64,000 bases of DNA from Patescibacteria group bacterium. Its GTDB lineage: Bacteria > Patescibacteriota > JABMPQ01 > JAQVVF01. The notes under the pieces are model-generated. The model had not been told where the DNA came from and did not search any database. It was given only the letters and a program-made list of their open reading frames with translations. Shown piece by piece: positions 1 through 32,181 of this stretch; position 1 is the stretch's first letter, and each line of letters begins with the position of its first letter. Location: the NCBI GenBank assembly GCA_041662665.1, contig JBAZSC010000001.1, positions 513,511 through 577,510 on the forward strand, written 5' to 3'. Position numbers and translations under genes: made by a program.

Positions 1-264
1 CTTTTACTTCATTTTCTTTTACTATTTTTCGTAATGTAAAAAAGTAATCAACAGAGCTCAAGCCAAACATTCTAAGAGAGCTATTATAGCTTTTTCGGAT
101 AATTTTAAAGCCTTGTTTTTTATCAAAATCGGACGCATTAGAATTAATTGGTGCCCAAACTACGACCTTATCAGAAGGCAATCTTTTGCAAATGTTATAA
201 AGATAATTTTGAATTCCACCTCTTTCTGGAGGAAAGAAATAGGTGAGAAATAATGATTTTTTCA
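1..264 (-). CDS. Glycosyltransferase family 4, N-terminal part (partial, runs off the window start)
   Basis: Reverse-strand ORF with start codon at 262-264. N-terminus MKKSLFLTYFFPPERGGIQNY... is the typical GT4 N-domain motif (FPPxxGG). Missing from the ORF track because there is no stop inside the window. Confidence 0.5.
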
Positions 265-423
265 TGAAATTTATGAATTGAATATTGAATATTTAATATT
301 GGCGTCGAGAGTCGGATAATATTCAATATTTAATATTCAGTAACTTTATTCTACCAAATAATCAAAAATCACACAAATATTGCTATTATATTGGCTTAAA
401 CAAGGGAAAGTGATAAAATCCCA

Positions 424-452
424 TTGACAAGATTTTTAGATTGTGCTAATCT
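424..452 (+). promoter_or_regulatory. sigma70-like promoter: TTGACA, 17-nt spacer, TAATCT
   Basis: TTGACA at 424-429, 17-nt spacer, TAATCT at 447-452. AT-rich host-like promoter reading into the GC-rich CDS; RBS GAGGAGG precedes the ATG at 531. Confidence 0.5.
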
Positions 453-530
453 ACTAAGTTACAATCCTCAGGTTCTGGAGAGAAAGGCAAGAACACTCAC
501 AACGAGAGAGAAAACGAGGAGGCAAGGGAA

Positions 531-1598
531 ATGAAGCGCACCAACAACATGCTCAAGATCGTGGCGGCGGGTTTCGTGATGTTCATGATGATGTTCAACT
601 TCAACCCCTTCTACAACTACTTCTACGACGAGGACGAGGGTGTCGCGTACGCGCAGGGCGAGCAGAGCGAGAAGGTGGAGTGGAAGATGTTGGACGCTGG
701 GTTCCAGGGTCAGAACGTGGCCTGGAAGAGCGAGTGGTCCTCCATGGTCATGGATGCGAAGTCGATGGTTGATATGAATCCGCTGAGTTGTGTAGAGGTG
801 AAGGGTTTCGAGGACGTGATTGGCTACGGCCAGTCCAAGCAGGAGCGCCTGGAGATCCGGGTCGCGGGTGGCGAAGAGCCCCTGCGGCAGGATCGGGCGC
901 GCAAGCGGATGATCTACGTGATGAGCAAGATTCGTGAGACTGGGCTGGAAGGTGCACAGGTCAAGGAAGGAATCCCCGTCATCAACGCCCCCAAGGGGCA
1001 GCGTGGCGCGGTGATCACCCTGATCAAGGATTGCATTCCCAAGCCGCCTGTTGCCTGCTGGGATACGAACCAGAACAGCCAGTGTGACTACGAGGAAGAC
1101 GTCAACAAGGACAACAAGTGTGATGTCATCGACTGCAGGGGCGACGATGGATCGAACGGTCGGAACGGCAAGATGGACATCGACTACGACTTCATCGGCC
1201 AGTACATGGTGAGCTTCGAGCGACCTGACTTCTACGGCTTCGAGCTTCGCGTCAACTTCCCGGTCAGCGACATGCTGATGCTGGGACTGGGCGCGGAAGC
1301 AGGGAAGTCGGACGGTGTGGCGGCGGCGGGATTCGAGCTGGCTGGAGAGTACGATCTGAACCGCTACTTCAAGCCTCGTCTCTCCCTGGTCGGTCGGGCG
1401 TTCGAGCTCGACAATCATCTCTACTTCGGTAGGGGTGAGATCGGCGGAGGGCTGGGGTTCGTCGGCGAATTCGCGGAGTTCGACCACCTCTCCCTGATCT
1501 ACGAGCTCCGAGGAGAATGGAAGGGAGAACTGGCGACGGGCAGGCGGGAATGGAAGGACGTGAAGTCCGGGGTCTTCGACCTCGGCCTCCGGTTCTAG
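531..1598 (+). CDS. Secreted beta-rich protein encoded in GC-rich DNA; homolog of CDS 3410..4663
   Basis: N-terminal hydrophobic signal/TM segment. Strong GC3 codon bias. C-terminal alternating hydrophobic strands ending in ...GLRF (aromatic C-terminus, OMP-like). Blocks align with 3410..4663 (EKVEWKMLDAGF/EKIVQKWDLVDAAL; PLSCVEVKGFEDV/PTSCLDIAGIDDV; KGQRGAVITLIKDC/KGIRGVRITLVKGC; YDLNRYFKPRL/YDLVYLKPRI). Confidence 0.6.
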   Translation: MKRTNNMLKIVAAGFVMFMMMFNFNPFYNYFYDEDEGVAYAQGEQSEKVEWKMLDAGFQGQNVAWKSEWSSMVMDAKSMVDMNPLSCVEVKGFEDVIGYGQSKQERLEIRVAGGEEPLRQDRARKRMIYVMSKIRETGLEGAQVKEGIPVINAPKGQRGAVITLIKDCIPKPPVACWDTNQNSQCDYEEDVNKDNKCDVIDCRGDDGSNGRNGKMDIDYDFIGQYMVSFERPDFYGFELRVNFPVSDMLMLGLGAEAGKSDGVAAAGFELAGEYDLNRYFKPRLSLVGRAFELDNHLYFGRGEIGGGLGFVGEFAEFDHLSLIYELRGEWKGELATGRREWKDVKSGVFDLGLRF

Positions 1599-1692
1599 TT
1601 CGAGAAGCTCCGGGCGCCCGACAAGACAACCGGCTGACAAGAAGTCGGGCGCCCGGTTCCGGTGGCAAGAACGGTTCGAGAGGAGGTGTGCG

Positions 1693-2331
1693 ATGAACGC
1701 GTTCGCGAAGTTCCTGTTCTGCCTGCTGATCGGTCTGTGCCTGTCCATCAACTGGAGCTGCGCGCTCCGCGAGGACGCCCAGCCGCCGGAAGACGGTGGC
1801 GAGGGCGAGGGAGAAGGCGAGGGCGAGGGTGAGGGCGAAGGTGAAGGGGAAGGTGAGGGTGAAGGCGAAGGAGAAGGCTGCGAGGGCGAAGGTGAGGGCG
1901 AGGGCGTGGAGTGCCAGGACGGTGAGCTCCGCCCGTGCAACTGCGACAGCGGCGACGTCGGCTACCAGACCTGCAAGGGAAGCTGGGGCGAGTGCGTCTG
2001 CGACTGTGGCGGCGACTGCGAAGGTGAGGGCGAGGGCGGCGAGGGGGAGGGTGAAGGTGAGAGCTGCTCGGTGTGGATCCAGGATGGGATGCTGTGTGGT
2101 GACATCGCTGGTCTGACTTCGTGGACGTTCGGCTGCATGCCTCCGGGTGTGGAGTCGGTCTGCGAGCTGAAGACCTTCGGTGGAACCTGCACGATGATCC
2201 CGACTGGTGTCGACTCCGCGTGGCCCCGTTCGATCAACGGTGTCTGGCTGACAGTCGTGGGCTGCATGGCTCGCGACGGTCTCCAGATCACCAGCGATCC
2301 GAGCGGCGGCCACTACCTGACCCTGCCGTAA
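1693..2331 (+). CDS. Secreted acidic Cys-rich protein with (GE)n low-complexity repeat
   Basis: RBS GAGGAGG upstream and an N-terminal signal peptide. GGCGAG-type hexanucleotide repeat at about 1797-1875 encodes (GE)n. The Cys motif TCKGSWGECVC resembles the C..G..TC...GSWG.C modules of CDS 25243..28200. Confidence 0.5.
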   Translation: MNAFAKFLFCLLIGLCLSINWSCALREDAQPPEDGGEGEGEGEGEGEGEGEGEGEGEGEGEGCEGEGEGEGVECQDGELRPCNCDSGDVGYQTCKGSWGECVCDCGGDCEGEGEGGEGEGEGESCSVWIQDGMLCGDIAGLTSWTFGCMPPGVESVCELKTFGGTCTMIPTGVDSAWPRSINGVWLTVVGCMARDGLQITSDPSGGHYLTLP

Positions 2332-2423
2332 GATCTTCAATCCCGCCCGACAAACGCAAGTGCGTCGGGTGCGGCCTCTCTCAACACAACAACAAGCAAT
2401 TCCTGTACATTCTGTTCCTTTAA

Positions 2424-2451
2424 GAGTTCACTTCAGTGAGCTCTTTTTTTA
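2424..2451 (+). terminator. Intrinsic terminator
   Basis: GAGTTCAC-TTCA-GTGAGCTC hairpin followed by T7. Confidence 0.6.
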
Positions 2452-2452
2452 T

Positions 2453-2479
2453 CCGCCGAAGCCTGAAAGGCGAAGGCGG
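2453..2479. repeat. GC-rich REP-like hairpin element, copy A (CCGCCGAAGCC-loop-GGCGAAGGCGG)
   Basis: Same motif family recurs at 8243-8275, 20527-20562 (inside ugd) and 21570-21624. Confidence 0.5.
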
Positions 2480-2496
2480 ATTTTGTTCAAATTTTA

Positions 2497-2649
2497 GAAA
2501 CTCGGTTTTATGGGTAAAGAAAAATTAACGTATTTCTGGGATAGTTAATTTAAGTTAAGTAAAATGTTGCTTTGCACAAAAACCGAGTTTCGTAACGTCG
2601 TAATCAACACGCGAAACTCGGTTTTTTCGAAAACCGAGTTTCAAATCAG
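2497..2649. repeat. Left arm of 153-bp imperfect inverted repeat flanking the tRNA operon
   Basis: Reverse complement of 3079-3231. The ends match perfectly (GAAACTCGGTTTTATGGGTAAAGAAA and AAACTCGGTTTTTTCGAAAACCGAGTTTCAAATCAG) around a diverged middle. Holds four copies of the palindromic 12-mer GAAACTCGGTTT/AAACCGAGTTTC. Confidence 0.8.
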
Positions 2650-2760
2650 CTGTGATTTTACGTATTTATAAAATCACATAGAATTGCCCCAAAAGGCATA
2701 TTTTACTATAAAAGCAATATCATACCAGCTCTATATCAATCTCACGCTAGGCCAAAAACC

Positions 2761-2788
2761 TTGACAAATTTAGCCATTGTAGTATACT
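2761..2788 (+). promoter_or_regulatory. sigma70-like promoter of the tRNA operon: TTGACA, 16-nt spacer, TATACT
   Basis: Near-consensus boxes about 38 nt upstream of tRNA-Lys. Confidence 0.6.
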
Positions 2789-2825
2789 TATAAGTTAAAA
2801 ATCCAGCCACCTGTACTTTCGGTAA

Positions 2826-2901
2826 GCGCCCATAGCTCAGCTGGTAGAGCTGCGGACTTTTAATCCGTCGGTCGAGGGTTCGAATCCCTCTGGGCGTACC
2901 A
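2826..2901 (+). tRNA. tRNA-Lys (anticodon UUU), CCA encoded
   Basis: Manual cloverleaf: acceptor GCGCCCA/TGGGCGT, D-stem GCTC/GAGC, anticodon stem GCGGA/TCCGT with loop CTTTTAA, T-arm GAGGG-TTCGAAT-CCCTC, 3' ACCA. Confidence 0.9.
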
Positions 2902-2918
2902 CGTCAGTCGTTCCTTCA

Positions 2919-3007
2919 GCCCGGATGGCGAAAAGGCAGCCGCGCTGGGCTTAAAACCCGGTGGTCCTGAACCAACCGTGCGGGTTCGAATCCCGCTCCG
3001 GGCACCA
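2919..3007 (+). tRNA. tRNA-Leu (anticodon UAA), type II long variable arm, CCA encoded
   Basis: Acceptor GCCCGGA/TCCGGGC, anticodon stem CTGGG/CCCGG with loop CTTAAAA, long variable arm, T-arm GCGGG-TTCGAAT-CCCGC, discriminator A, CCA. Confidence 0.85.
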
Positions 3008-3010
3008 TCA

Positions 3011-3037
3011 ACAGCATCTAATCGTGCTGTTTTTTTC
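3011..3037 (+). terminator. Intrinsic terminator of the tRNA operon
   Basis: ACAGCA-N8-TGCTGT hairpin followed by T7. Confidence 0.7.
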
Positions 3038-3078
3038 TTGTCCAAATTTTTTGTTCAGTTGCTAATCGAATATCAATA

Positions 3079-3231
3079 CTGATTTGAAACTCGGTTTTCG
3101 AAAAAACCGAGTTTCGCGTGTTGACTGTAACACTACGAAACTCGGTTTTTGTGCAAAGCAATATTTTATTTTATCTAAATAAACTATTTAAAAAATACAC
3201 TAATCTTTCTTTACCCATAAAACCGAGTTTC
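3079..3231. repeat. Right arm of 153-bp inverted repeat flanking the tRNA operon
   Basis: Reverse complement of 2497-2649; contains the same palindromic 12-mers. Confidence 0.8.
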
Positions 3232-3287
3232 TATTCGAGCGATTTGTGGCCTTAAGGCATTCGTGAGATTAGTAATGTAAAAAGAGT

Positions 3288-3409: not shown

Positions 3410-4663
3410 ATGAGCAAGTTCAGACGTGCTTTTATTATTGCAGGCATTCTTTTGTTTTCGCAAACAACATATGCTGCAAATACTTGTCCAAATTCTCAAG
3501 TTTCAGCTTGGACTGAAAAAGGATCAGTTTGTGTTACCGCAAATTTGACTGGATCCGTTCAGATTTTTGCGCCAGAGAATTTCTTGATCTATATCAACAA
3601 AGTCAAGGTTTCTGGAATTCAGTACAATCGTGGAAAAGCATATTTCAAGGTTTATTTGATGCCAGGCAAATACGATATTTATGTTGGCACCAACTCAAAC
3701 AATTACAGGCACGAGACAATTCAGATTCATGCCTCAAAGACTGAATCAGTAACTTTCGCATCGCCAAAGTTGATGTACAATGCTCCGAATGTTTCATATC
3801 CAGAAATCAATCCAGAGAAGATTGTGCAGAAATGGGATTTGGTTGATGCTGCTTTGAAGGGAATGGATTGTGTTTATAAGGAATCATGGAAAAAAACTCT
3901 GCAAGAGGCAGCAATTGCTTTGTCAAAGGAAGAGCCAACATCCTGTTTGGATATTGCTGGAATCGATGATGTCAACGATTTTGTCGACTTGGCAACGCCA
4001 GAAGTCAGAGCAGCAGGTAGTCAAGATGCATTTCATACCATCAGAGCGCAAGGTAGAGCAAGCTTGATCATGTATCGTTTTGAAATGGATTTCAATGTTC
4101 CGCCAAAGCGTTTGCGCGAAGGCAAGATTGTGATTAGAGGTGAAAAGGGAATTCGAGGAGTCAGGATTACGCTCGTCAAAGGATGTTTGTCTCAAGCTGT
4201 CAATTCAAATCCTGTTGTAAATGTTCCTGATTCAGTAATGGATGTTTGGAGAGCAGGAGATGATGTTGCTAGGAAAAGGAAGCATTGGGAAGCAATCTAT
4301 GGCGCAAGACTTGTTTTTGGCGCTGGATATAGCACTTACCTTGATAATGTCTTGCAGACTCATCAGATTGAATTCCCAACTGACTTTAATTCAATTCTAG
4401 TAATTCCAGGAATGCGTCTTGGAACATCAGACTATGACAATTTCTATCCTTCTGCGATGTTTTCACTTGGCTATGACCTTGTATATCTCAAGCCAAGGAT
4501 TGGTGGAATTGTTACTGGTCATATCTCAGAAAGAGAAATTGAACGAAGCCTGTTTGCTGGAATTGTGTTTCCTCTGCCTGTCGAAAATTTGACCTTGGGT
4601 TCGCAATATGAGTATGGCAATTTTGGCCAAAACGGTTTTCTTTCCATTGGATTCGATCTTTAA
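3410..4663 (+). CDS. Secreted protein, AT-rich homolog of the GC-rich CDS 531..1598
   Basis: Signal peptide MSKFRRAFIIAGILLFSQTTYA. Strong SD. Several collinear conserved blocks shared with 531..1598. Confidence 0.6.
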   Translation: MSKFRRAFIIAGILLFSQTTYAANTCPNSQVSAWTEKGSVCVTANLTGSVQIFAPENFLIYINKVKVSGIQYNRGKAYFKVYLMPGKYDIYVGTNSNNYRHETIQIHASKTESVTFASPKLMYNAPNVSYPEINPEKIVQKWDLVDAALKGMDCVYKESWKKTLQEAAIALSKEEPTSCLDIAGIDDVNDFVDLATPEVRAAGSQDAFHTIRAQGRASLIMYRFEMDFNVPPKRLREGKIVIRGEKGIRGVRITLVKGCLSQAVNSNPVVNVPDSVMDVWRAGDDVARKRKHWEAIYGARLVFGAGYSTYLDNVLQTHQIEFPTDFNSILVIPGMRLGTSDYDNFYPSAMFSLGYDLVYLKPRIGGIVTGHISEREIERSLFAGIVFPLPVENLTLGSQYEYGNFGQNGFLSIGFDL

Positions 4664-4690: not shown

Positions 4691-4832
4691 TGCTTACAAA
4701 TCTCACAAATGCCTTCTGGCCACAAATTAACACCAATAATTTAGAGAAACTTTTTTTTATTCAAAAAATATGTTACACTAAAAAAAAGTCAATTTCTTAA
4801 TTTCCGAATTTCTTAATTTCTAAAATTATTAA

Positions 4833-6281
4833 ATGGAAACCATTAAAAACCAAATAAAAAATCTATCAAAACCGGCAATCTATACAGCATTATGTTTTCT
4901 TTATGTCAGTATTTTTATTTTGCCAACATTTTTTATTCCTTTTAATATTTTTCTATACCTTTTCGGCATTGGTTTTGCTTCATTATTTATCCTCAAAATT
5001 CCAGAAGTTGGCTTATATACCATAATATTATGCACAATGGTTTACGAAAGATTTTTTACTTTGCAGCCAATTGTTTTTGATATTAATATCTACAAAATTT
5101 ATCCAATTGATGCAATATTATTAGTTACTTTTATCAGTTTTTTAATTCATCATTTTGGCAATCTAAAAAGCAAAGAAATAAAATATACCAGATTAGAAAT
5201 TGCCACTTTTATTTTCTTTTTAACATTAGTCGTTGCAGTAGTTTACAGTATTATCAAAAATCCAGACAAAGAATTGGCAATTGCAACATTCAAGAATTAT
5301 AGCTATTTATTAATTTTATTTTTAACGATTTTTATAATAAGGACAAAGATTCAGTTCAAGAGAATTATAAATGTCATTTTAGCTGGTGGCATTATATTAA
5401 TTGGCTTTATTATTTATGGACTTGCCTCAGGAAATGGGCTTTGGAGTGAATTTACTCCAGGAACAAGATATTTAGCGCAGACACACACGTATTATCTATT
5501 ATTGCCAGTTTTTATTGCAATTGTTTTTCTAACATATGGCAAGGAAATTTATGGGCATATCAGAACTCAAGCTATAATTTTAATTCAATCAACAGGCATT
5601 ATCGCAGGTTTGCACCGACATTTATGGCTTGGATTTGGAGCTGGACTTGCTACAATTTTATTACTATCAGACAAAGAAAAAAGAAAAATCGCTCTAAAAA
5701 ATATTTTAAGCGTTCTTCTTGCAGGTTTGATAATTTTTTCTTTAGTAATTTGGATTGCTGCTTTATCAAATGCCAATCTTAATATTAAGGCTTCATCTTA
5801 TGTCCAAAGATTTACAGAAAGAGTTCAATCATTGTTTACCTTAAAATCAAGTAATATTGAAGATGCTGCTGGTTGGAGATTAAAAGCATGGCAAGAAGGC
5901 TTAATTTTGTATGCCAAAAATCCAGTTCTGGGCATCGGTTTTGGAAAGATGATCAATGTCGAATTCAAAGGTTTCGTTTCTACAGTTGAAATGAGAGCTT
6001 TGCATAATGAGCCATTAGGACTATTGATTCAAGCTGGTTTATTAGCTCTTATTCCATTTATAATAATAAATATTTATTTAATAAAATATTTTATTAAGCT
6101 TTACAAGACAAAAATAGAAGAACAGCCAGAATTAATTGCCTTATTTGCTTTTTATATCGCTACAATGGTCAGCATGTTTTTTTCCTTGTATTTAGTTACG
6201 AATATGCTTAATATATTCTATTGGATTGCAATGGGATTAATTGTCAGTTTGTATAAGATGTACAAGCCTGAGATTAAATAA
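4833..6281 (+). CDS. Polytopic membrane protein, O-antigen ligase/polymerase (Wzy_C)-like
   Basis: About 12 TM helices with a large loop; sits in a polysaccharide cluster. Family call is tentative. Confidence 0.4.
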   Translation: METIKNQIKNLSKPAIYTALCFLYVSIFILPTFFIPFNIFLYLFGIGFASLFILKIPEVGLYTIILCTMVYERFFTLQPIVFDINIYKIYPIDAILLVTFISFLIHHFGNLKSKEIKYTRLEIATFIFFLTLVVAVVYSIIKNPDKELAIATFKNYSYLLILFLTIFIIRTKIQFKRIINVILAGGIILIGFIIYGLASGNGLWSEFTPGTRYLAQTHTYYLLLPVFIAIVFLTYGKEIYGHIRTQAIILIQSTGIIAGLHRHLWLGFGAGLATILLLSDKEKRKIALKNILSVLLAGLIIFSLVIWIAALSNANLNIKASSYVQRFTERVQSLFTLKSSNIEDAAGWRLKAWQEGLILYAKNPVLGIGFGKMINVEFKGFVSTVEMRALHNEPLGLLIQAGLLALIPFIIINIYLIKYFIKLYKTKIEEQPELIALFAFYIATMVSMFFSLYLVTNMLNIFYWIAMGLIVSLYKMYKPEIK

Positions 6282-10113: not shown

Positions 10114-10593
10114 ATGATTCAAGGTGTCAAAATCAAACAGTTAATAATTCGTAAAGACAAACCAGATCTAGATCAGAAAAAAGTTAAACCAGGACATTTG
10201 CTAGAAATTTTAAGATCTGATGACAAATTATTAACAAAATTCGGACAAACAATTTTTACTGTTGCTTATCCTGGTACAATCAAAGCTTTTCATTGGCACA
10301 AAAAACAAGACGATCTTTGGTTTTTCGCGACTGGCAAGGCAACTATTGTATTGTATGATACTCGCAAAAAATCAAAAACTTTTGGCGAGACTCAAGTAAT
10401 TGAATGCAACACTGAAACAGATCCAAAATTAGTATTAATTCCAATCGGTGTTGCTCATGGCTACAAAGCTCAAGGTAAAAAACCAGTTATGCTTTTTTAT
10501 CATACAACAAAACCATATAATGCTAAAAATCCAGATGAGCAAAGACTTCCATACAATGATCCAAAAATCGGATTCAATTGGAATAAAATATAA
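10114..10593 (+). CDS. rmlC: dTDP-4-dehydrorhamnose 3,5-epimerase-like cupin
   Basis: Cupin with KAFHWHK (compare RGLHFQ) and C-terminal NDPKIGFNW (compare NDPxLxIxW). Located with rmlB, rmlD and rmlA. Confidence 0.6.
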   Translation: MIQGVKIKQLIIRKDKPDLDQKKVKPGHLLEILRSDDKLLTKFGQTIFTVAYPGTIKAFHWHKKQDDLWFFATGKATIVLYDTRKKSKTFGETQVIECNTETDPKLVLIPIGVAHGYKAQGKKPVMLFYHTTKPYNAKNPDEQRLPYNDPKIGFNWNKI

Positions 10594-10599
10594 GTAGCT

Positions 10600-10623
10600 G
10601 GTTGCAGAGTCCTCTCTGCAACC
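10600..10623. repeat. Perfect hairpin GGTTGCAGAG-TCCT-CTCTGCAACC sharing the 10-mer GAGTCCTCTC with a hairpin inside CDS 6401..7624
   Basis: 10-bp stem, no T-run; just downstream of the rmlC-like stop. Confidence 0.45.
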
Positions 10624-10690
10624 ACATCAACGTATTAAAATAATTTCAGAAAAGATTCTGAAATCAGCAAATTAGTTTTAAATTTTAAAG

Positions 10691-23830: not shown

Positions 23831-23978
23831 ATATTAAAAGTATACCATATATTTTACATCAATAATATAAAATTGAAAACTTGACAAGTGGATAATCTTT
23901 TGTTACGCTATTTTGAAGCAAATCTGTGCCGAAGTACCGAAAAACAACCCGTTTCCGAGAGAAGAGGAGGAGAAAAAG

Positions 23979-25004
23979 ATGAGAATCCTGAACTTTCTAG
24001 TATTTTGTGGAGTTGCTTGTTTTTCATCGACTGCTTATACTCAAGAAGAATCCGAAAGCAAGTCGGATATTGCTATTGTTTTGATGTCTGAAGAAACTCA
24101 TGATCAGAGAATGGTAGATGATGCTGTTGAAATGATTATTGCCAAATTTTCAAATGAAAAGATCCAGTCTTCTGGCAAAGAAATGTTTGGCAGTGATTCT
24201 GATGAACAGATCAAAACTTGTCTGAAAGACAATTCTTGTGTACAAAAAAAAGCTGTGGAAAAACATGTTTCCCGAGTATTTTATGGAACTTTGGCTAGTG
24301 ACAGAAGAGTTGAAAATGTTGTAGTTATCACTCCTGGCAAGAGATACAATAAGATCAAGGATGTTGTTCCAGTAGAGAAGAAAACTCTGACTATTAGACT
24401 GACTATGTTTGATGCAGTCAACAACAAGGTTGAAATGTCATGGGTGAGCAAAAAGATTGAACCAAGCAAACTCGCTTCTGAAGTTCTGACTGACATTGCT
24501 TCCGAAGCTGTTCGTATCTACAAGGCAAGTCCACTGACCTGGCCAGAAACAAAAAAGCCAAATACTGAAGTCAAGGTTGAAATTGTAAATGTCGATCCTG
24601 TTTCAGAACCAGCCAAGCCAGTTGTCGAAGAAGTGCAGGAAAAGCCAATCGTTCTGCTGGATCCTGAAGTGAGCAATTTGGATTGGCATTTCTGGACGAG
24701 CGTTGGCGGTGCAAGTGTCGGTGTAATCTTGATTTCTGCAGGCAGTTACTACGGTCTCAAGTCAAGCAATGCTAGCGACAATTATGATGCAACCAACATT
24801 CAGACCCAGGCAGAAAGCTTTAAAGATGAAGCAGAATCTGCTGGATCAACTGCTAACATTATGTTTGCTTCTGGTGGAGTTCTGATTGCAGGCAGTGCAG
24901 CTCTTTATGTTCTTGATCAATTCGGTATTCTCGATGCCAATGAATCACCTCAGGCAGTTTTCGTGCCAAAAGACGGCATGTTCTGTTTGAACCTTTCGTT
25001 CTAA
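23979..25004 (+). CDS. Secreted/membrane-anchored hypothetical protein
   Basis: Strong SD (GAGGAGGAG), signal peptide MRILNFLVFCGVACFSS, C-terminal hydrophobic segments. The ATG at 23979 is preferred over the ORF-track start at 23913. Confidence 0.55.
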   Translation: MRILNFLVFCGVACFSSTAYTQEESESKSDIAIVLMSEETHDQRMVDDAVEMIIAKFSNEKIQSSGKEMFGSDSDEQIKTCLKDNSCVQKKAVEKHVSRVFYGTLASDRRVENVVVITPGKRYNKIKDVVPVEKKTLTIRLTMFDAVNNKVEMSWVSKKIEPSKLASEVLTDIASEAVRIYKASPLTWPETKKPNTEVKVEIVNVDPVSEPAKPVVEEVQEKPIVLLDPEVSNLDWHFWTSVGGASVGVILISAGSYYGLKSSNASDNYDATNIQTQAESFKDEAESAGSTANIMFASGGVLIAGSAALYVLDQFGILDANESPQAVFVPKDGMFCLNLSF

Positions 25005-25242: not shown

Positions 25243-28200
25243 ATGAGACAAACAGCATTAATGTTTTTGTTGTCCTTGTATTTTGTTGGTTGTATTGCAG
25301 AGTTGGCACCTGCTGATGAAAAGAATGGAAAGAATCTTTGTGATGAAAATGCACGTTGCTCTGATGGCTATACTTGTGTTTGCAACATGAATAATCATTC
25401 CAAGATTTGCGTGAAGAATCCGAATGCTGAAATGATTTTGGCAAACAAGTCTACTGTCTGTGAAGAGACTATGTCTGACACCGGACCCGATGCTGAAGCT
25501 GACGCCGAAGTTGGAACAAGCGCTGATATCGACGCTGATTCTAACGCTGAAGCGGACGCTGAAGTCGGAACGCCTGATGAAGATTCGACGACTGATACAG
25601 ATGCCAACGCTTCTACCGATGTCGAGCCTGATGAAGGCAACGATGTTGGTAATGACGCTCAGCCTGATGTCTCGCCTGACAATGGAACCGATCTCGGTTC
25701 TGATGTCGGTGAAGATGTTCCTTGTATTCCCGCAACCGAAATCTGTGATGGCGTTGACAATGACTGCGATAGCTATACTGACGAAGATTTCAACAATCTG
25801 AATCAGTCCTGTTCTGTCGGACTCGGTTTGTGTGAGAACGAAGGCGTTTACGTTTGTAGTACCGATAGAAGCACAACTGTTTGTAATGTTGCAGCTTTTC
25901 AAGCTTATCCTGAAGAATGTGATGACATGGACAACGACTGCGATGGCCAAACTGACGAAGATTTGGTTGGCTGTTGCGACGTTGACGCTGTTCAGGAATG
26001 CGGATCTGATGTTGGGGAATGTGTGAAGGGCGAGATGACTTGTCAGGAAGATGGCAGTTGGGGCGACTGTGAAAACGCTGTTGGTCCGACTGTTGATCTT
26101 TGCGACAGTCTTGACAATGACTGTGATGGCGCAACTGACGAGGATTTTCTGAATCGAGGGATGGAATGCCAGATTGGTCAAGGCAACTGTCTTTCTAATG
26201 GCAATTATGCTTGTACTGAAGATATGTTTGGAACTTTCTGTGCAGCTCTGATCATCCAGCCGTCCAATGAGGCTTGCGATCAGCAGGATAATGACTGCGA
26301 TGGCGCAACTGATGAGGACTTGGTTGGATGTTGCGAGCCTAACGATCAGGTCGAATGCGGATCCGCTGTCGGCGAATGCCGTAAGGGTCACAAGACTTGT
26401 TCGATTGATGGTGTGTGGAGCGAATGTCTTGAAGAAGTGAAGCCAATGGCTGAACTTTGTGATGGCAAGGATAACAACTGCGACGGTCAGACAGATGAAA
26501 CCTTTGCTAATCTGAACAGCGAATGTCAGATTGGGCGTGGTGAATGTCTGTCGATTGGTCGCATGACTTGCGGTGTTGATCAGCAGTCAACGTCTTGTAA
26601 TGCAGATATCCTCACCGGCAACGATGAGATCTGTGATAACAAAGATAATGACTGCGATGGCGATGTTGACGAAAATCTGCTGCGTGAATGTGGCAGTGAC
26701 GTCGGTGAATGTGAGATCGGTATCCAATCTTGTTTTGCTGGTGGCTGGCTTGCCTGCGAAGGTGAGATTCAGTCGAGCGACGAGATTTGTGATAACCTTG
26801 ATAACAATTGCGACGGTAATACAGATGAAGGTTTCAACATCAACGATCAATGCTTTGAAGGTCTTGGCGAATGCCAGGCTGAAGGCGTGATCGTTTGTGT
26901 TGATGAGAATATGAGTGCTTGCAATGCAGTTGTCGGTCAGCAGTCGGAAGAGACATGCGATGGCTTGGACAACGATTGCGATGGCAATACAGATGAAGAG
27001 TTGGAAAATTGTTGTATTCCTGATACCATTTCCGAATGCGGTATTGACACTGGCGAATGTGTGAAGGGAACTTCCACTTGCCAGGCAGACCGTACTTGGG
27101 GTTGGTGTTTGGATGCAACTGGACCATCGGATGAAATCTGCGATGGATTGGATAACAACTGCGATGGCGAAACAGACGAAGGTTTGACTGGTTGTTGCTC
27201 ACCTTCCGTTTCTCGCAACTGCGGATCTGATGTGGGCGAATGCTCTCATGGGACGCAGATTTGCTGGGAAAGCCGTGAGTGGGGCGAATGCCAGAATCAG
27301 ACTTTGCCTGCAAATGAAATCTGCGATGGACTTGACAATGACTGCGATGGCCAGACAGACAATGGATTCGACCTCATGGCTGAAGCCAATAACTGCGGCC
27401 AATGCAATTATGTTTGTGGCAGTCAGGGGACAGTGAGTACTACTTGCGAAGCAGGTGAGTGCGTTCTGACGTGCAGCCGCTTCCGAGTTGATTTGAACAC
27501 TGATCCGACTGACGGCTGTGAATGTGAAGTCACCAATTGCGGTGTGGAAATCTGCGATCAGGTGGACAACGATTGTGATGGTGCAATTGACGAAGACTGT
27601 GATTCTCTCGTCATGTACCTGAGCTTCGATGGACACATGAATGATGGATCTACCAATGCCAACAACGCTCTCAACCATGGCGCCACTTACACTGCTGATG
27701 CAGTTTGTGGCCAGGCAGCATCGTTCGACGGAGTCGACGATTATGCCGAAGTGGCTGATAGCGTGAGCATGGATTCGATTGTGAATGAGTTTACGATTTG
27801 CGTTTCAGCAAATGTGACTGATTACGAAAGAGGTGATGTTGTATTCTCAAAGTTTAGGCTGCAACCAGCACTTGGAATCGAATGGAACGATGTAACTATG
27901 GAAAACAACTGGACATTCTTTTTAAACCGAGTAAAGCTTGCTCAGGGAAGAACTGTTAATGTGAATCAGTGGATTACTTTCTGTGGGAAATTCAAGCAAG
28001 GAGTTTTTACTGCATACATTGATGGCGAACAAATTTGGCAAGGTAATGCTCAAAACCCAGTTGGCGGTATTACCTATATTGGGTCTAACGATATGCCACC
28101 AGCCAAGAACAGCCACACAAAGATTGATGAGACTACATTTTATAACGTTGCACTTTCCGATGAGGAAATCCAGCACTACTTTGAAATCATGAAACGCTAG
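25243..28200 (+). CDS. Large secreted (lipo)protein with 11 MopE-like/TSP3-like Cys-rich Ca-binding repeats (CDGxDNDCDGxTDE) and a C-terminal LamG/concanavalin-A-like domain
   Basis: Strong SD, signal peptide with ...YFVGC. N-terminal acidic DAEADAEVGT repeats. Eleven copies of C-D-x-x-D-N-D-C-D-G-x-x-D-E alternate with two types of Cys-knot-like spacers. C-terminal LSFDG...DGSTNANNALNHGAT...ASFDGVDDYAEV is the LamG_3 signature. GC about 45-50%. Confidence 0.7.
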   Translation: MRQTALMFLLSLYFVGCIAELAPADEKNGKNLCDENARCSDGYTCVCNMNNHSKICVKNPNAEMILANKSTVCEETMSDTGPDAEADAEVGTSADIDADSNAEADAEVGTPDEDSTTDTDANASTDVEPDEGNDVGNDAQPDVSPDNGTDLGSDVGEDVPCIPATEICDGVDNDCDSYTDEDFNNLNQSCSVGLGLCENEGVYVCSTDRSTTVCNVAAFQAYPEECDDMDNDCDGQTDEDLVGCCDVDAVQECGSDVGECVKGEMTCQEDGSWGDCENAVGPTVDLCDSLDNDCDGATDEDFLNRGMECQIGQGNCLSNGNYACTEDMFGTFCAALIIQPSNEACDQQDNDCDGATDEDLVGCCEPNDQVECGSAVGECRKGHKTCSIDGVWSECLEEVKPMAELCDGKDNNCDGQTDETFANLNSECQIGRGECLSIGRMTCGVDQQSTSCNADILTGNDEICDNKDNDCDGDVDENLLRECGSDVGECEIGIQSCFAGGWLACEGEIQSSDEICDNLDNNCDGNTDEGFNINDQCFEGLGECQAEGVIVCVDENMSACNAVVGQQSEETCDGLDNDCDGNTDEELENCCIPDTISECGIDTGECVKGTSTCQADRTWGWCLDATGPSDEICDGLDNNCDGETDEGLTGCCSPSVSRNCGSDVGECSHGTQICWESREWGECQNQTLPANEICDGLDNDCDGQTDNGFDLMAEANNCGQCNYVCGSQGTVSTTCEAGECVLTCSRFRVDLNTDPTDGCECEVTNCGVEICDQVDNDCDGAIDEDCDSLVMYLSFDGHMNDGSTNANNALNHGATYTADAVCGQAASFDGVDDYAEVADSVSMDSIVNEFTICVSANVTDYERGDVVFSKFRLQPALGIEWNDVTMENNWTFFLNRVKLAQGRTVNVNQWITFCGKFKQGVFTAYIDGEQIWQGNAQNPVGGITYIGSNDMPPAKNSHTKIDETTFYNVALSDEEIQHYFEIMKR

Positions 28201-28294: not shown

Positions 28295-29029
28295 TTAATA
28301 AACAGTTAGATAAAATCCTGTAGGATCTGAACCTGCACCAGTATCATCATAAAAATCAATCGTAACCGATGTTGTACCAACAGACCTAATAACAGCAAAT
28401 AAACTTGTACCAGAAATAAGAGGAGTAACATTAAAATAATTAGAAGAAATATTTGTTGTTGCTCCAAAATCAACTGTATATCTTCCAGCTGTTGAATTAT
28501 AGCTAGGCGTTATTGTTGTTCCATTAGCTAGTTTGTTAAATTGGGTGGCTGCTGTTGGAGTAGAGGGAGTCGAAGTGTTAATATACGCTGCCGCCTTTAC
28601 AACTCCATCCATAGAAAAATCCATTTTATCACCAGTTACAGAAGCACTTTGCAAATTACCAGAAGTTATAGTTTCGCTAGCAATTTTATTTCCAGTTACA
28701 GCGCCTTCGCCAATTTTTCCATTTGTAACAACACCAGTTCCAAGATTATCAGCACCAACAATATTGCTACCTTGCAAAATTCCGCCAACTTTGACATTTC
28801 CTTGAACTTTCAAATGATCCTTGATATAAACTTTTTTGCCTTTGACAGGATTTCTGATAAAACCTTTTACTAACAATTGTCCTTTATTGCTGTTTGTTCC
28901 AACAGTCAATGTTTTTTTTACTAGACCAGTATCAATGGTCCAGACAGATGCTGCGCTTGCAAAAGCAGTTGTAAACAACAACGCGCTTCCTAAAACAAGC
29001 GACAACCCTAAAAATCTTTTTTGTTTCAT
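28295..29029 (-). CDS. Secreted Gly/Thr/Val-rich repeat protein (beta-helix or fiber-like)
   Basis: Signal peptide, repeated G.V.TG.KI..G motifs, 244 aa. Confidence 0.5.
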   Translation of the reverse strand: MKQKRFLGLSLVLGSALLFTTAFASAASVWTIDTGLVKKTLTVGTNSNKGQLLVKGFIRNPVKGKKVYIKDHLKVQGNVKVGGILQGSNIVGADNLGTGVVTNGKIGEGAVTGNKIASETITSGNLQSASVTGDKMDFSMDGVVKAAAYINTSTPSTPTAATQFNKLANGTTITPSYNSTAGRYTVDFGATTNISSNYFNVTPLISGTSLFAVIRSVGTTSVTIDFYDDTGAGSDPTGFYLTVY

Positions 29030-29080
29030 TTGTTTGTATTAATTATTTTTTAAATTTATAAGTAATTTTAATTAATTTTT

Positions 29081-29131
29081 ATGCGTAAATTCTGCGTTTT
29101 CTGCGTTCGATTCTGCGTTAGTCTGCGTTAT
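29081..29131. repeat. Five tandem direct repeats of about 10 bp (..TCTGCGTT..) in the promoter region of the minus-strand gene 28295..29029
   Basis: ATGCGTAAAT TCTGCGTTTT CTGCGTTCGAT TCTGCGTTAG TCTGCGTTAT. Confidence 0.6.
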
Positions 29132-29200
29132 AACAAATTAAATATTACGAATTGTGCTTAATTTTTCAGCCTTTGTAATTAATTAGCACTTCTTATCAAT

Positions 29201-29785
29201 TTATGATTTAAGCTCAATAGTTGGAAAAGCTTTTATTTTACTAATCTTTTCATACTCGATATCACTTAGAATTCGATGACCTTTTAAAGTATCAACTAAA
29301 ACAATTATTTTTTCATCTAACTTTCTAATAATCAAAATAACATCACCCTTTGCAGAATCAATTTTATTGATCAAAGATTCTTCAACATGATCAATTTTAT
29401 TTGTTAATTCTTTTTTAATACCATCAACTTTAATATTTAATATTTCTAAATCTTCTTTTGTTGCGGTCTCTTCAAAACCTTTTGCAACCATTAATGCAAG
29501 TTCTGAAATTTTTTTATCGAATTTTTTATCAAGTCTTTTTTCTTGTTGATTAAAACCAATATCCATTTTTTTATCAAGTCTTTTTTCTTGTTGATTAAAA
29601 CCAATATCCATTTTTTTATCAAGTCTTTTTTCTTGTTCTTTAAAACCACTATCCATTTTTACGGATAATTTTTCAAACTTTGTAGATATCTTTTCAACCT
29701 TTGTAGATATCTTTTCAACTTTTGTGCCAAGCTTTTCAATCAATTTGGCCAAATCATTAATTGTAATTTCTTTTTTTATTTTCAT
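29201..29785 (-). CDS. Coiled-coil protein with perfect in-frame tandem DNA repeats (45 bp in 3 copies; 21 bp in 3 copies)
   Basis: Two perfect copies plus one variant of a 45-bp unit at about 29522-29655 encode FNQQEKRLDKKMDIG. A 21-bp unit at about 29668-29740 encodes KVEKIST. The internal Met (MKIKKE) is preferred as start. Confidence 0.5.
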   Translation of the reverse strand: MKIKKEITINDLAKLIEKLGTKVEKISTKVEKISTKFEKLSVKMDSGFKEQEKRLDKKMDIGFNQQEKRLDKKMDIGFNQQEKRLDKKFDKKISELALMVAKGFEETATKEDLEILNIKVDGIKKELTNKIDHVEESLINKIDSAKGDVILIIRKLDEKIIVLVDTLKGHRILSDIEYEKISKIKAFPTIELKS

Positions 29786-29863
29786 GAATTCAAAAATTTT
29801 ATCACCAAAATTATAACACATTTTTTCTAAGTCAACAAATATACTGTTGATAATAAATCAAAG

Positions 29864-29892
29864 TTGACAAATATCAATTTTAAAAGTATTAT
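29864..29892 (+). promoter_or_regulatory. sigma70-like promoter: TTGACA, 17-nt spacer, TATTAT
   Basis: Upstream of the lipoprotein gene 29935; SD ACAGGAGGGAAG. Confidence 0.55.
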
Positions 29893-29934
29893 ATATAAAT
29901 CGTACCTTGCCAAAAAGAGAACAGGAGGGAAGAG

Positions 29935-30864
29935 ATGAAAAGGGAAATGACATTAGTTATTTTATTGTCAATTTTGCTTGCATCTTGTATGAGCTATCCA
30001 GAAAGAATCAAGGCTTACACAACCGGCAATCCTGGAAAGCCATTTAGAGTCTTAGGCAGTGCTGAAGCAACATATATTCCCCAAGGATATTCCAAAAAAG
30101 TTGCGCCTGGTCTGAAAAGCTATGAAAGAAATTATGAAAAATATGGCGACACAAAAACTCATGTCAGCAGCTATAATTTGGAAGCTCCGCCTGATTTGAA
30201 GCCTGATTATCAAGAAGCAAATCGACTGATGCTCATCATGGCCTATCGTCAATATGGATCAATTCTTGCTGCAGTTGTTAATGTTCGTTATTCAACTTCC
30301 AAAGAATATTATGCAGAAGGTGGTAAGGTTGATACCAATTTACAACGAATGCGCGTGAAAGCTTCTGGCACAGCTGTCTGTTTTATTGATCGGCAAAACA
30401 AATGCATTGCCTATGATGATGATTCTGTAATTGAAGAAGAGTCTACAGCAGTTGCTTCAATTCCAAAAGAAAAGCCAGTTGCAATGAATGATTCACCAGG
30501 AGAAAAGTTGCTTGTTTCTCGAAATATTTTAGGAAGTGATTTGCTATCAACCAAAACTGATACTGATACAAAGAGACATTCAAAAGGATTCAAGAAAGGA
30601 TATTTTTACGATTATGATTTATTTTCGATTAGAATTATGGAATTCAAAACTCCCAAAATTGCAAAAAGTTATCTTGAATCTCTGGGTAAAAAGCCAAATG
30701 CCAAAAGAGTCAACGAAGGATTCTATTGGCTTAGTCAACAAGATTCTGAACAAACTTCGTACCTAGTATATCTGCTTGATCCGACAAAAGTTGTTGCTAT
30801 TTATCCTGCTGATAAGAGCTTAAGTACAGCTGCAAAAATTTCAGCTGAGTTGGAAAAGAAATAA
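29935..30864 (+). CDS. Lipoprotein, hypothetical
   Basis: Signal peptide with lipobox LLASC; strong SD. Confidence 0.55.
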   Translation: MKREMTLVILLSILLASCMSYPERIKAYTTGNPGKPFRVLGSAEATYIPQGYSKKVAPGLKSYERNYEKYGDTKTHVSSYNLEAPPDLKPDYQEANRLMLIMAYRQYGSILAAVVNVRYSTSKEYYAEGGKVDTNLQRMRVKASGTAVCFIDRQNKCIAYDDDSVIEEESTAVASIPKEKPVAMNDSPGEKLLVSRNILGSDLLSTKTDTDTKRHSKGFKKGYFYDYDLFSIRIMEFKTPKIAKSYLESLGKKPNAKRVNEGFYWLSQQDSEQTSYLVYLLDPTKVVAIYPADKSLSTAAKISAELEKK

Positions 30865-30883
30865 TGTTCTATTTTTAGTCTCA

Positions 30884-30909
30884 ATCGAAGAAAGTCTTCG
30901 ATTTTTTAT
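30884..30909 (+). terminator. Intrinsic terminator
   Basis: ATCGAAGA-AAG-TCTTCGAT hairpin followed by T6. Confidence 0.7.
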
Positions 30910-30913
30910 TTTA

Positions 30914-30943
30914 AAATAAAAAAAACCGAAGAAAATCTTCGGT
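30914..30943 (-). terminator. Intrinsic terminator (minus strand)
   Basis: ACCGAAGA-AAA-TCTTCGGT hairpin with a T8 run on the minus strand. Confidence 0.7.
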
Positions 30944-30949
30944 AGAATC

Positions 30950-32053: not shown

Positions 32054-32142
32054 GACTTTTTCCTCCTCCTCTCTCGTTTTTGGGAGTAAAATTTTAAAAG
32101 AACAATACCATAACATACGCTAAACTTTAAATTTTGTCAAAT

Positions 32143-32167
32143 AAAAAAAACCGAAATAAATTCGGTT
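32143..32167 (-). terminator. Intrinsic terminator (minus strand)
   Basis: AACCGAA-ATAAA-TTCGGTT hairpin with a T8 run on the minus strand. Confidence 0.7.
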
Positions 32168-32181
32168 AAAAGAGCAAAAAA

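Follow-up and report, generated by a model that had tools for sequence, protein, structure and literature searches.

A two-gene operon of 1.9 kb in the genome of a Patescibacteria group bacterium (assembly GCA_041662665.1) is held at a GC content about twice that of the DNA around it. The stretch analysed, hereafter the window, comprises 64,000 nucleotides (nt; contig JBAZSC010000001.1, positions 513,511 to 577,510 of the forward strand), and the operon, consisting of the open reading frames (ORFs) termed ORF1 and ORF2, lies close to its beginning. Taken as a whole, the best explanation is that of a resident, recombining envelope-protein operon whose GC-richness is actively maintained, to which we assign a probability of about 0.7. 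Three observations carry this reading: the unit is an old, vertically syntenic resident of its locus within a narrow clade of Patescibacteria, its GC-richness is an actively maintained equilibrium, and the operon recombines as an allele cassette, one divergent allele replacing another by homologous recombination.

In sliding windows of 200 nt, GC content is 25-33% up to about position 400, 54-68.5% across 501-2400 and 32-37% afterwards; the composition switches near 466 and reverts near 2420, and the island stands at about 62% against 31.5% for the whole window. The recomputed profile bears out the contrast and both edges (about 470-2420) given in a preliminary description of this DNA, together with the strong third-position bias it had noticed in both + strand ORFs. 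GC at the first, second and third codon positions (GC1, GC2 and GC3) is 0.59/0.36/0.82 in ORF1 and 0.66/0.53/0.79 in ORF2, as against a GC3 of 0.14-0.30 in about 45 other genes of the window (typical background about 0.2). Four-fold degenerate sites of the island hold 5-8% A, 36-40% C, 33-41% G and 15-22% T (C+G 73-77%), those of the background 42% A, 14% C, 6% G and 37% T (A+T 79%). Codon choice is inverted accordingly: lysine is AAG in 25/25 codons (background AAA 85%), phenylalanine TTC in 27/27 (background TTT 80%), leucine CTG or CTC in 36/38 (background mostly TTA) and tyrosine TAC in 16/16. Since the noncoding parts are also GC-raised (5' untranslated region, UTR, 47-53%; intercistronic spacer 63-70%; 3' UTR 45-53%; background spacers 27%), the force is region-wide and not one of codon choice alone. 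Third-position GC skew is -0.00 in ORF1 and -0.12 in ORF2, the overall skew of 0.18 arising from codon positions 1 and 2, and the island holds one canonical G-quadruplex (G4) motif. The operon and its framing elements are as follows:

466..2420, + strand: GC-rich domain, 54-68% GC, coextensive with both the inferred transcript body and the segment that genomes exchange
393..480, + strand: AT-rich promoter block and start of the 5' leader, with a TGGCTTA motif, as read from the sequence
424-429 and 444-452, + strand: promoter core, -35 TTGACA, 17-nt spacer and extended -10 TGcTAATCT
466-479, + strand: conserved leader CCTCAGGTTCTGGA
516..522, + strand: Shine-Dalgarno sequence of ORF1, GAGGAGG (GAGGAG conserved in the alignment)
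531..1598, + strand: ORF1, 355 amino acids (aa)
1610..1658, + strand: conserved GC-rich intercistronic hairpin, 13-bp stem CCGGGCGCCCGAC / GTCGGGCGCCCGG
1681..1686, + strand: Shine-Dalgarno sequence of ORF2, AGGAGG
1693..2331, + strand: ORF2, 212 aa
1798..1906, + strand: (GGCGAG)n tract encoding (GE)n, 17.7 imperfect copies by TRF
2008-2061, + strand: second, short (GE)n-type tract
2342..2374, + strand: conserved 3' UTR hairpin, CCCGCCCGAC...GTCGGGTGCGG, where identity between exchanged alleles returns
2422..2452, + strand: intrinsic terminator, 10-bp stem and 4-nt loop (2422-2445) followed by a T-run

The junctions are reproduced independently. A Logan contig (L001, run SRR18595301) is 100% identical to window positions 1-2633 and spans both composition junctions, stopping inside a repeat, while a JGI contig (L013, Ga0172379_10059146) matches L001 at 100% along 3,193 nt that include the left junction; the island is thus integrated, as the preliminary description had supposed, and not chimeric. 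Long antisense ORFs occur on the minus strand at 468-1940 (490 aa) and 1369-2340 (323 aa) since TTA, CTA and TCA are missing from the GC-rich codon usage. On the related contig L002, the gene caller annotated such an antisense ORF (4748-5527, minus) in place of ORF2, and this miscalling is likely a recurrent annotation error at the locus.

Among 5.8 billion protein clusters, five homologs of ORF1 (45-53% identity) and four of ORF2 were found. Contigs carrying the unit were recovered from Logan (L002, L003, L008 and L009), JGI (L004 and L005) and two reference metagenome-assembled genomes (MAGs; L011 and L012, of 211 and 654 kb), L012 being profiled for composition and tRNAs only. On every contig with a close homolog, the two-gene unit of 59-69% GC lies within DNA of 27-37% GC, and the unit is GC-rich in all eight related lineages recovered (GC3 0.72-0.86). 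Wherever the upstream flank is present (L002, L003, L009 and L011), it reads DUF5679, DUF5656, Wzz and GT4 on the minus strand, and then the unit; in L011 the order continues with tRNA-Leu(UAA), two lower-GC paralogs and Wzy, which matches the window, while in L012 the GC island is likewise followed by tRNA-Leu. A deeper relative (L010, with a GT4 57% identical) carries an ortholog at the same position, where GC3 is 0.52 against 0.23-0.25 in its flanks and is again too high for its own GC1 and GC2. Rather than being patchily present, the unit therefore occupies the same locus in L002, L003, L009, L010 and L011.

These genomes share MetK at 92-93% identity, and the nearest named relatives by MetK are Falkowbacteria, Buchananbacteria, Kerfeldbacteria and Kuenenbacteria (73-76% identity), which places the genome among Parcubacteria/ABY1-type lineages of the candidate phyla radiation (CPR). 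An affiliation with Saccharibacteria, as in the title of L012 (CAZNOH010000001.1), would imply high-GC actinobacterial hosts and is not supported by the MetK neighbours; the label 'uncultured Candidatus Saccharibacteria' is probably inaccurate. Synonymous divergence (dS) of the flanking genes is 0.85-1.4 between the window and L002 and up to 2.8 between the window and L003, with ratios of nonsynonymous to synonymous divergence (dN/dS) of 0.06-0.17 (0.06-0.11 for window and L002). The island genes show a similar dS (about 1.0-1.6), a dN 4-5 times higher and a dN/dS of 0.2-0.44, the gene-wide values of 0.3-0.4 contrasting with 0.06-0.11 in the flanks. A unit that is syntenic and GC-rich in relatives whose flanks are saturated at synonymous sites is not a recent import.

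Synonymous third-position changes were polarised by parsimony between the closest alleles with an outgroup. Within the island, the counts of AT→GC and GC→AT changes are 12:12, 11:14, 16:17, 17:16, 20:15, 7:8 and 9:9, and a few comparisons lean towards GC→AT (9:20 and 4:16); this balance places the island at a GC-rich equilibrium and not in decay. Per site, AT→GC change is about three times faster than GC→AT change (12/43 vs 12/136), whereas the flanks show the opposite. The equilibrium GC3 implied by the counts is 0.64-0.80 for the island and 0.32-0.49 for GT4 and Wzz, the flank figure being inflated by the bias of parsimony from the common to the rare state, a bias that opposes the conclusion drawn for the island. 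The AT→GC share of changes was 0.49-0.51, while 0.13-0.20 is expected under the flank process acting on the island's ancestral composition and 0.08 for a native equilibrium GC3 of 0.21 (binomial p 9e-6 to 8e-15). By the Muto-Osawa regressions, which give the expected relation among GC1, GC2 and GC3, the GC3 of ORF1 implies a genome of 68% GC with an expected GC1 of 68% and GC2 of 45%, against 59% and 36% observed. GC3 thus exceeds what GC1 and GC2 predict, which is the opposite of amelioration of a foreign GC-rich gene.

The noncoding frame of the operon is conserved across lineages, namely the promoter with the first 20 nt or so of the leader, the intercistronic hairpin, the 3' UTR hairpin and the terminator. 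The promoter core motifs are invariant in seven aligned loci, including L004/L005, and conserved in L011 as well, and L010 carries the same promoter type; transcription probably starts near 459. In RNAalifold analysis of six loci, the intercistronic hairpin has 16 pairs, five of them with compensatory double changes, and the terminator is conserved in five aligned loci (window, L002, L004, L005 and L008). The AT-rich, host-type sigma70 promoter at 424-452, the Shine-Dalgarno sequences before both ORFs and the normal intrinsic terminator closing the island, all of which the preliminary description had named, are therefore present as it had them, and the promoter recurs throughout the aligned loci. 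The spacer between the divergent GT4 gene and the promoter (265-339) is filled by AT-rich repeats, both direct and inverted (AATATTGAATATTTAATATT and its relatives); they are conserved in both L002 and L011 and may be a shared regulatory region of the divergent promoters. An rve_3 integrase/transposase gene of insertion sequence (IS) type replaces GT4 directly upstream of the island promoter on the minus strand of L005 (3-902) and L006 (3-896); it could reflect either an IS insertion or relocation of the unit in that lineage. The noncoding frame is kept also in L004/L005, with the transposase upstream.

Within this frame the coding interior is highly divergent, with amino-acid identities of 45-76% for ORF1 and 49-79% for ORF2. 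The clearest case is the pair L002 and L011, whose flanks are nearly the same (Wzz 100% and GT4 98% identical in amino acids; 89-100% nucleotide identity over 3.6 kb) and whose alleles are 69% (ORF1) and 58% (ORF2) identical. Identity between the two is perfect through the promoter and about 48 nt of leader, collapses about 25 nt before the ATG, recovers partially in the barrel region of ORF1 (82-90%), reaches its minimum in ORF2 (51-67%) and is back at the 3' hairpin and terminator (92%), with downstream Wzy at 86%. With one breakpoint in the 5' leader and the other at the 3' hairpin, the exchanged unit is the GC-rich domain itself. The allele of the window is itself a mosaic, positions 700-1019 grouping with L003 (78/104 informative sites) and the rest with L008 (188/245), with a maximum chi-square of 82.4 and permutation p <= 0.003. 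The deep branching of the cassette roughly follows that of the flanks.

A paralog of ORF1 lies downstream of the island and serves as an internal control:

3410..4663, + strand: ORF1 paralog, 417 aa, host-like codon usage, GC 0.40, GC3 0.34, BLASTP 8e-15 to ORF1

Between the window and L011, the paralog is 50% identical in amino acids (dN 0.41) and ORF1 51% (dN 0.42), with a paralog GC3 of 0.34-0.35. Being equally divergent yet not GC-rich, the paralog indicates that fast divergence alone does not give GC-richness. In the same comparison dS is 1.07 for the island, 1.45 for Wzy and 2.8 for the paralog, and the lower value of the island fits a directional force on synonymous sites.

The mechanism that we propose would run as follows. 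The operon would encode two secreted envelope proteins and behave as an allele cassette, in which crossovers in the conserved elements would replace the divergent coding interior between genomes. A GC-favouring fixation bias linked to recombination and confined to the exchanged segment would then maintain the GC-richness, either through GC-biased repair of heteroduplex between divergent alleles or because selection favours a base composition conducive to recombination, a proposal made for the vls cassettes of Borrelia. We infer such recombination-linked fixation to be the most likely driver, although at somewhat less than even odds.

Several points weigh against this reading. The paralog is as divergent (dN 0.41) at a GC3 of 0.34, and clean swaps of the whole cassette leave little interior heteroduplex on which biased repair could act. 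Polarisation is imperfect at a dS of 0.5-1 and with recombining alleles, though the expected bias opposes our conclusion. Two-fold degenerate codons ending in a pyrimidine (Y codons) take C in about 88% of cases against about 68% predicted from four-fold sites, an excess that hints at some codon-level selection. The GC3 differences attributed to GC-biased gene conversion (gBGC) in bacteria (PMC4450053) are, in our reading, far below the 60-point shift seen here. Unlike vls, the island has no third-position GC skew, one canonical G4 and no silent cassettes in the window, and the genome was examined through a 64-kb window of a 645-kb contig.

An unlikely explanation, though the one that survives best among the competing ones, is selection on the transcript, by which a GC-rich mRNA or GC-ending codons would be favoured in a probably highly expressed surface operon; such an mRNA might be more stable or better structured, might withstand RNases directed at AU, or might be translated at a speed, or with pauses, that suit secretion. 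From promoter to terminator, the GC-rich domain and the inferred transcript agree within about 20 nt, and the shift relative to the paralog is mostly synonymous (GC3 +0.48, GC1 +0.11, GC2 -0.03). The equally divergent paralog is without GC-richness, which makes the pressure specific to the unit. Y codons end almost always in C (TTC 27/27, TAC 16/16), beyond the four-fold bias, the dS of the island is below that of flanks or paralog, and the hairpins conserved with covariation, the near-consensus promoter and the strong Shine-Dalgarno sequences fit the same idea. However, the transcript ends are also the ends of the recombination unit, so both readings are confounded, and the use of AAG (25/25) and leucine CTG looks anti-adapted to the adjacent tRNAs for Lys(UUU) and Leu(UAA). 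To our knowledge, no case has been described in which translational or mRNA selection moved GC3 from 0.2 to 0.8.

Less probable by far is an external reservoir, in which the alleles would spend most of their evolution in a GC-rich genome or replicon that has escaped notice, such as that of the symbiont's host, and would enter the CPR locus again and again through recombination in the conserved leader (5') and hairpin (3'). Such a source would account for codon usage resembling that of an organism of about 65% GC, for near-identical genomes carrying very different alleles and, automatically, for an equilibrium GC-rich substitution pattern; moreover, most of the distant relatives of the same architecture have an amino-acid composition of high-GC type and C-termini like those of outer-membrane proteins (OMPs), and a barrel and lipoprotein pair would be sensible there. 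On the other hand, every recovered locus with a close homolog and flanks lies in AT-rich DNA. The five ORF1 and four ORF2 homologs from 5.8 billion clusters were joined by no close one from a library of 1.84 billion proteins, neither collection held a close homolog in GC-rich DNA, and scans of metagenome, genome and viral collections gave no copy in such DNA. A search by BLASTP and HMM for the high-GC donor lineage, suggested in the preliminary description, thus leads to no donor. The island proteins are intermediate (GARP/FYMINK about 1, GC2 0.36) and unlike proteins evolved at high GC (2-8), L010 combines an intermediate GC3 with the same excess over GC1 and GC2, and the deep branches of the cassette are roughly those of the flanks. 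A phage origin was also considered and rejected, as viral contigs gave no match.

A local mutational bias, produced by some process confined to the unit (transcription-coupled damage or repair, or an error-prone polymerase tract, for instance) and yielding an excess of AT→GC changes, is a rather remote prospect. The boundaries are sharp at the transcript ends and all site classes are GC-raised, noncoding spacers included, as it would predict; yet third positions lack strand asymmetry (skew -0.00 and -0.12), on which ground strand-asymmetric or transcription-coupled mutation was rejected, and the neighbouring, similarly organised paralog operon is without the effect. No gene of mutator type stood out within the unit or beside it, the ORFs not having been systematically scanned for one. 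Mutagenesis of the diversity-generating retroelement (DGR) type was rejected, for the window holds no repeated island segment and T is depleted as well as A, reverse transcriptases not being specifically searched. The suggestion of a locally different mutational regime consequently holds once it is restated as a locally GC-biased substitution regime, mutation bias as such being disfavoured.

Very recent transfer from a high-GC donor at a tRNA hotspot, not yet ameliorated, was the other explanation offered initially, and it is very improbable. It would draw on the strong compositional contrast with its sharp edges, on the tRNA genes nearby and on a wider protein family found mostly in proteomes of high-GC type. 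Against it, the unit is present, syntenic and GC-rich in all recovered relatives despite the saturated flank dS, its synonymous substitutions are at equilibrium, and the nearest relatives of high-GC type are only 17-25% identical. Nor does the tRNA hotspot hold up: the unit, which comprises two ORFs with coding-type GC3 and without a Pfam match, contains no integrase or mobility gene, no flanking direct repeats of att type were found around it, it lies upstream of the tRNA promoter and not at a tRNA 3' end, and L002 has the unit without the tRNA. An ancient transfer of the protein family into CPR bacteria is quite possible. Finally, an artefact, be it a chimeric MAG assembly or a composition constrained by an overlapping antisense gene, has a negligible chance of being right: although the source is a MAG, long antisense ORFs exist and the L002 caller chose one of them, identical independent assemblies span the junctions, the same junction recurs in other lineages, codon-shuffled controls are equally open, and the antisense frame is broken in L002 and L003.

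The preferred reading of a resident, recombining and actively GC-rich operon may be put in a more specific form, which we hold tentatively and would not bet on at even odds. The 1.9-kb unit, being both one transcript and one cassette, would constitute a micro-isochore that has long been held at a GC3 of about 0.8 in a genome of about 0.2 by a unit-specific, fixation-biased force stronger than the documented bacterial gBGC or codon selection, with the pairing of an OmpA-fold/β-barrel protein and a lipoprotein as a secondary element.

The N-terminus of ORF1 forms, by inspection and predicted helix, a hydrophobic, signal-like helix with a conserved AYAQ, and three further parts can be told apart:

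aa about 45-170 (nt about 663-1040): OmpA-like α/β domain
aa about 168-205 (nt about 1032-1145): Cys/Asp-rich linker
aa 233-354 (nt about 1227-1592): eight predicted β-strands

The predicted structure shows that the N-terminal domain adopts an OmpA-like fold of the peptidoglycan-binding type, with a β-α-β-α-β-β order superposable on OmpA-like domains. The eight-stranded C-terminal domain appears β-barrel-like, in a barrel model of low confidence. The C-terminus ...G[VL]RF, an aromatic end resembling a β-signal, is invariant in six orthologs, and hydrophobic or aromatic ends are common in many distant relatives. Searches of ORF1 and ORF2 against Pfam, NCBIfam (E <= 1) and PDB sequences gave no match. 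Aligned by hhalign with the C-terminal domain of E. coli OmpA, the ORF1 domain falls into the correct register without significance (E = 0.045, probability 1%); D95, R122 and R126, which are invariant or nearly so, stand in the OmpA-ligand register of this non-significant alignment.

A profile search of 1.84 billion proteins gave 217 matches of two kinds. The first comprises large collagen-like proteins that repeat the Cys/Asp linker motif, which in our reading resembles the calcium-binding thrombospondin type 3 repeat, a likeness unconfirmed by Pfam for ORF1. The second comprises proteins of about 350-400 aa which share the N-terminal domain and usually have an OMP-like C-terminus; most of these have a GARP/FYMINK of 2-8, as compared with about 1 for the island proteins and about 0.4 for native proteins of the window. 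CPR bacteria described so far are monoderm (PMC8871954), which renders doubtful the reading of ORF1 as a Gram-negative outer-membrane barrel made in the preliminary description. From the OmpA, OprF and Pal anchors, ORF1 differs in its reversed domain order, with the OmpA-like domain first and the barrel last, in lacking a Pfam OmpA match, and in a host lineage described as monoderm (PMC8871954).

ORF2 begins with a hydrophobic N-terminus followed by an invariant cysteine (CALRE), and from this conserved residue it appears to be a lipoprotein. The chain continues with an acidic (GE)n spacer and with Cys-rich modules, and its C-terminal domain is conserved, with the consensus ...VWI..G..CG.I.GL..WTFGCMP.GVE.VC...WLTVVGC..DGL...DP.GGHYL.LP; its AlphaFold2 model is poor (pLDDT 49). 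The (GGCGAG)n tract was predicted to be slippage-prone, and its length does vary, the sole difference between L004 and L005 being a 42-nt in-frame indel in the (GE)n tract. Both products are probably surface-exposed, and together they could build a structure of CPR cells that contacts the host or forms an outer layer.

Downstream of the island, and outside it, lies a tRNA module together with the paralog already described:

2495..3233: neighbouring tRNA module, bracketed by a 165-nt inverted repeat (2495-2659 / 3069-3233)
2826-2901: tRNA-Lys(UUU)
2919-3007: tRNA-Leu(UAA)
2761-2788 and 3010-3031: the promoter and the terminator of these tRNA genes

A tRNA-Leu(UAA) follows the unit in L004, L005, L011 and L012 and is absent from L002. 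In L002, Wzy comes after the island terminator without any tRNA and paralog module in between, so the module represents a presence/absence polymorphism. The arms of the 165-nt repeat are 86-88% complementary and hold all eight exact copies of GAAACTCGGTTTT in the window, arranged as palindromes such as GAAACTCGGTTTTTTCGAAAACCGAGTTTC; at up to two mismatches there are 11 matches, a number reached by 0/100 shuffles (mean 3.2). Single palindromes of the GAAACTCGGTTTT motif follow the island terminator in L002, L004/L005 and L008. As to its role, an operator or a bidirectional terminator is conceivable, as are the ends of an element that is invertible or that resembles a miniature inverted-repeat transposable element (MITE). 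Another inverted repeat of 34 nt (88% complementary) brackets the paralog (3242-3275 / 4694-4727), and a similar motif lies upstream of the L011 paralog (10624-10643). Extra copies of a tRNA 3' end (...GGGCGAATCCCGCTCCGGGCACCA) occur downstream of tRNA-Leu in L011 (about 10300-10620) and L004 (about 2440-2520); L011 has two of them, each after a GC-rich hairpin and each with its own terminator, and the window has no such fragment. Such copies may have been left behind by integrase-type events at the tRNA, or they may be small RNAs resembling tRNAs.

A second region of raised GC (41-48%) occurs further along the window, at 23979-25004 (GC3 0.36) and 25243-28200 (GC3 0.43). The former encodes a secreted-looking protein of 341 aa without a family match, and the latter a protein of 985 aa with eight Cys-rich Cu-binding_MopE motifs and a Laminin_G_3 domain. 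A Cys motif in this region, CGSDVGEC..G...C..DGSWGEC, weakly resembles the Cys module of ORF2; the two genes were considered as paralogs of ORF1 or ORF2 and set aside, as no significant similarity was detected. Taken with that of the ORF1 paralog (GC3 0.34), their composition suggests a graded elevation of GC3 among surface-protein genes of this genome. Adjacent to them, 28295-33777 holds a cluster of signal-peptide or lipoprotein-like genes that includes a secreted subtilase, Peptidase_S8 (32185-33777, minus), and a purine-rich leader is common to the genes at 23913-25004 and 30950-32116; translation of it through the start codon gives ...REEEEK(K/V)M.

A GC-rich island beside tRNA genes would normally be filed as a recent transfer, and the present one is old, resident and compositionally stable. 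Bacterial mutation is generally AT-biased, and whether selection or biased gene conversion keeps GC content up is debated. The locus sets both regimes nucleotides apart in one cell, with an AT-type paralog as a built-in control, so that the competing explanations become testable by population metagenomics. In uncultivated Patescibacteria, the operon is also a candidate for determining surface identity and possibly the interaction with hosts or phages, and a β-barrel-like protein with an OmpA fold in a supposedly monoderm cell raises the question of its role and location. From a practical standpoint, compositional binning, decontamination tools and gene callers may mishandle such segments.

Among known systems, tRNA-associated genomic islands are alike in their atypical composition, sharp edges and adjoining tRNA genes; the present unit differs in having no integrase or att repeats, in lying upstream of the tRNA, in being present in all relatives and in showing no amelioration. 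Allele loci for O-antigen or capsule, porins and pilins share with it conserved flanks, divergent mosaic alleles and discordance between flank and cassette, and like surface-antigen loci the island sits in a surface-polysaccharide neighbourhood (Wzz, GT4 and Wzy). Surface-antigen allele loci are usually below the genome in GC content and are read as imports; the island, unlike them, is far above genome GC and at substitutional equilibrium.

Within one bacterial genome, genes that recombine have a higher GC3 than those that do not, whatever their codon optimality (Lassalle et al. 2015, PMC4450053), and the cassette resembles such bacterial gBGC in combining recombination with GC-biased fixation. 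It differs from that effect, which we read as modest, in a GC3 shift of about 60 points confined to 1.9 kb, with the paralog barely affected.

The closest known system is vls of Borrelia burgdorferi sensu lato (vlsE and its silent cassettes), an antigenic-variation locus for a surface lipoprotein that diversifies by recombination. There, cassettes of 49.1% GC lie in a genome of 28.6% GC, from which the authors infer a strong pressure linked to gene conversion, and GC-richness is kept across species although the sequences diverge (PMC11499132). The vls system works by unidirectional, segmental conversion within one genome from an array of silent cassettes, while here alleles are replaced between genomes; tblastn and self-BLAST of the 64-kb window for silent cassettes of this type returned only the paralog (3830-4189). 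Furthermore, vls has a coding-strand GC skew of 0.52 and G-runs, as against a third-position skew of about zero and one canonical G4 here, and VlsE belongs to a vertebrate pathogen, as against unrelated proteins of a free-living or episymbiotic CPR bacterium. In both systems, nevertheless, GC content stands far above that of the genome and is conserved across lineages, with a larger contrast in the operon described here (about 62% vs about 30%), whose alleles are likewise mosaic.

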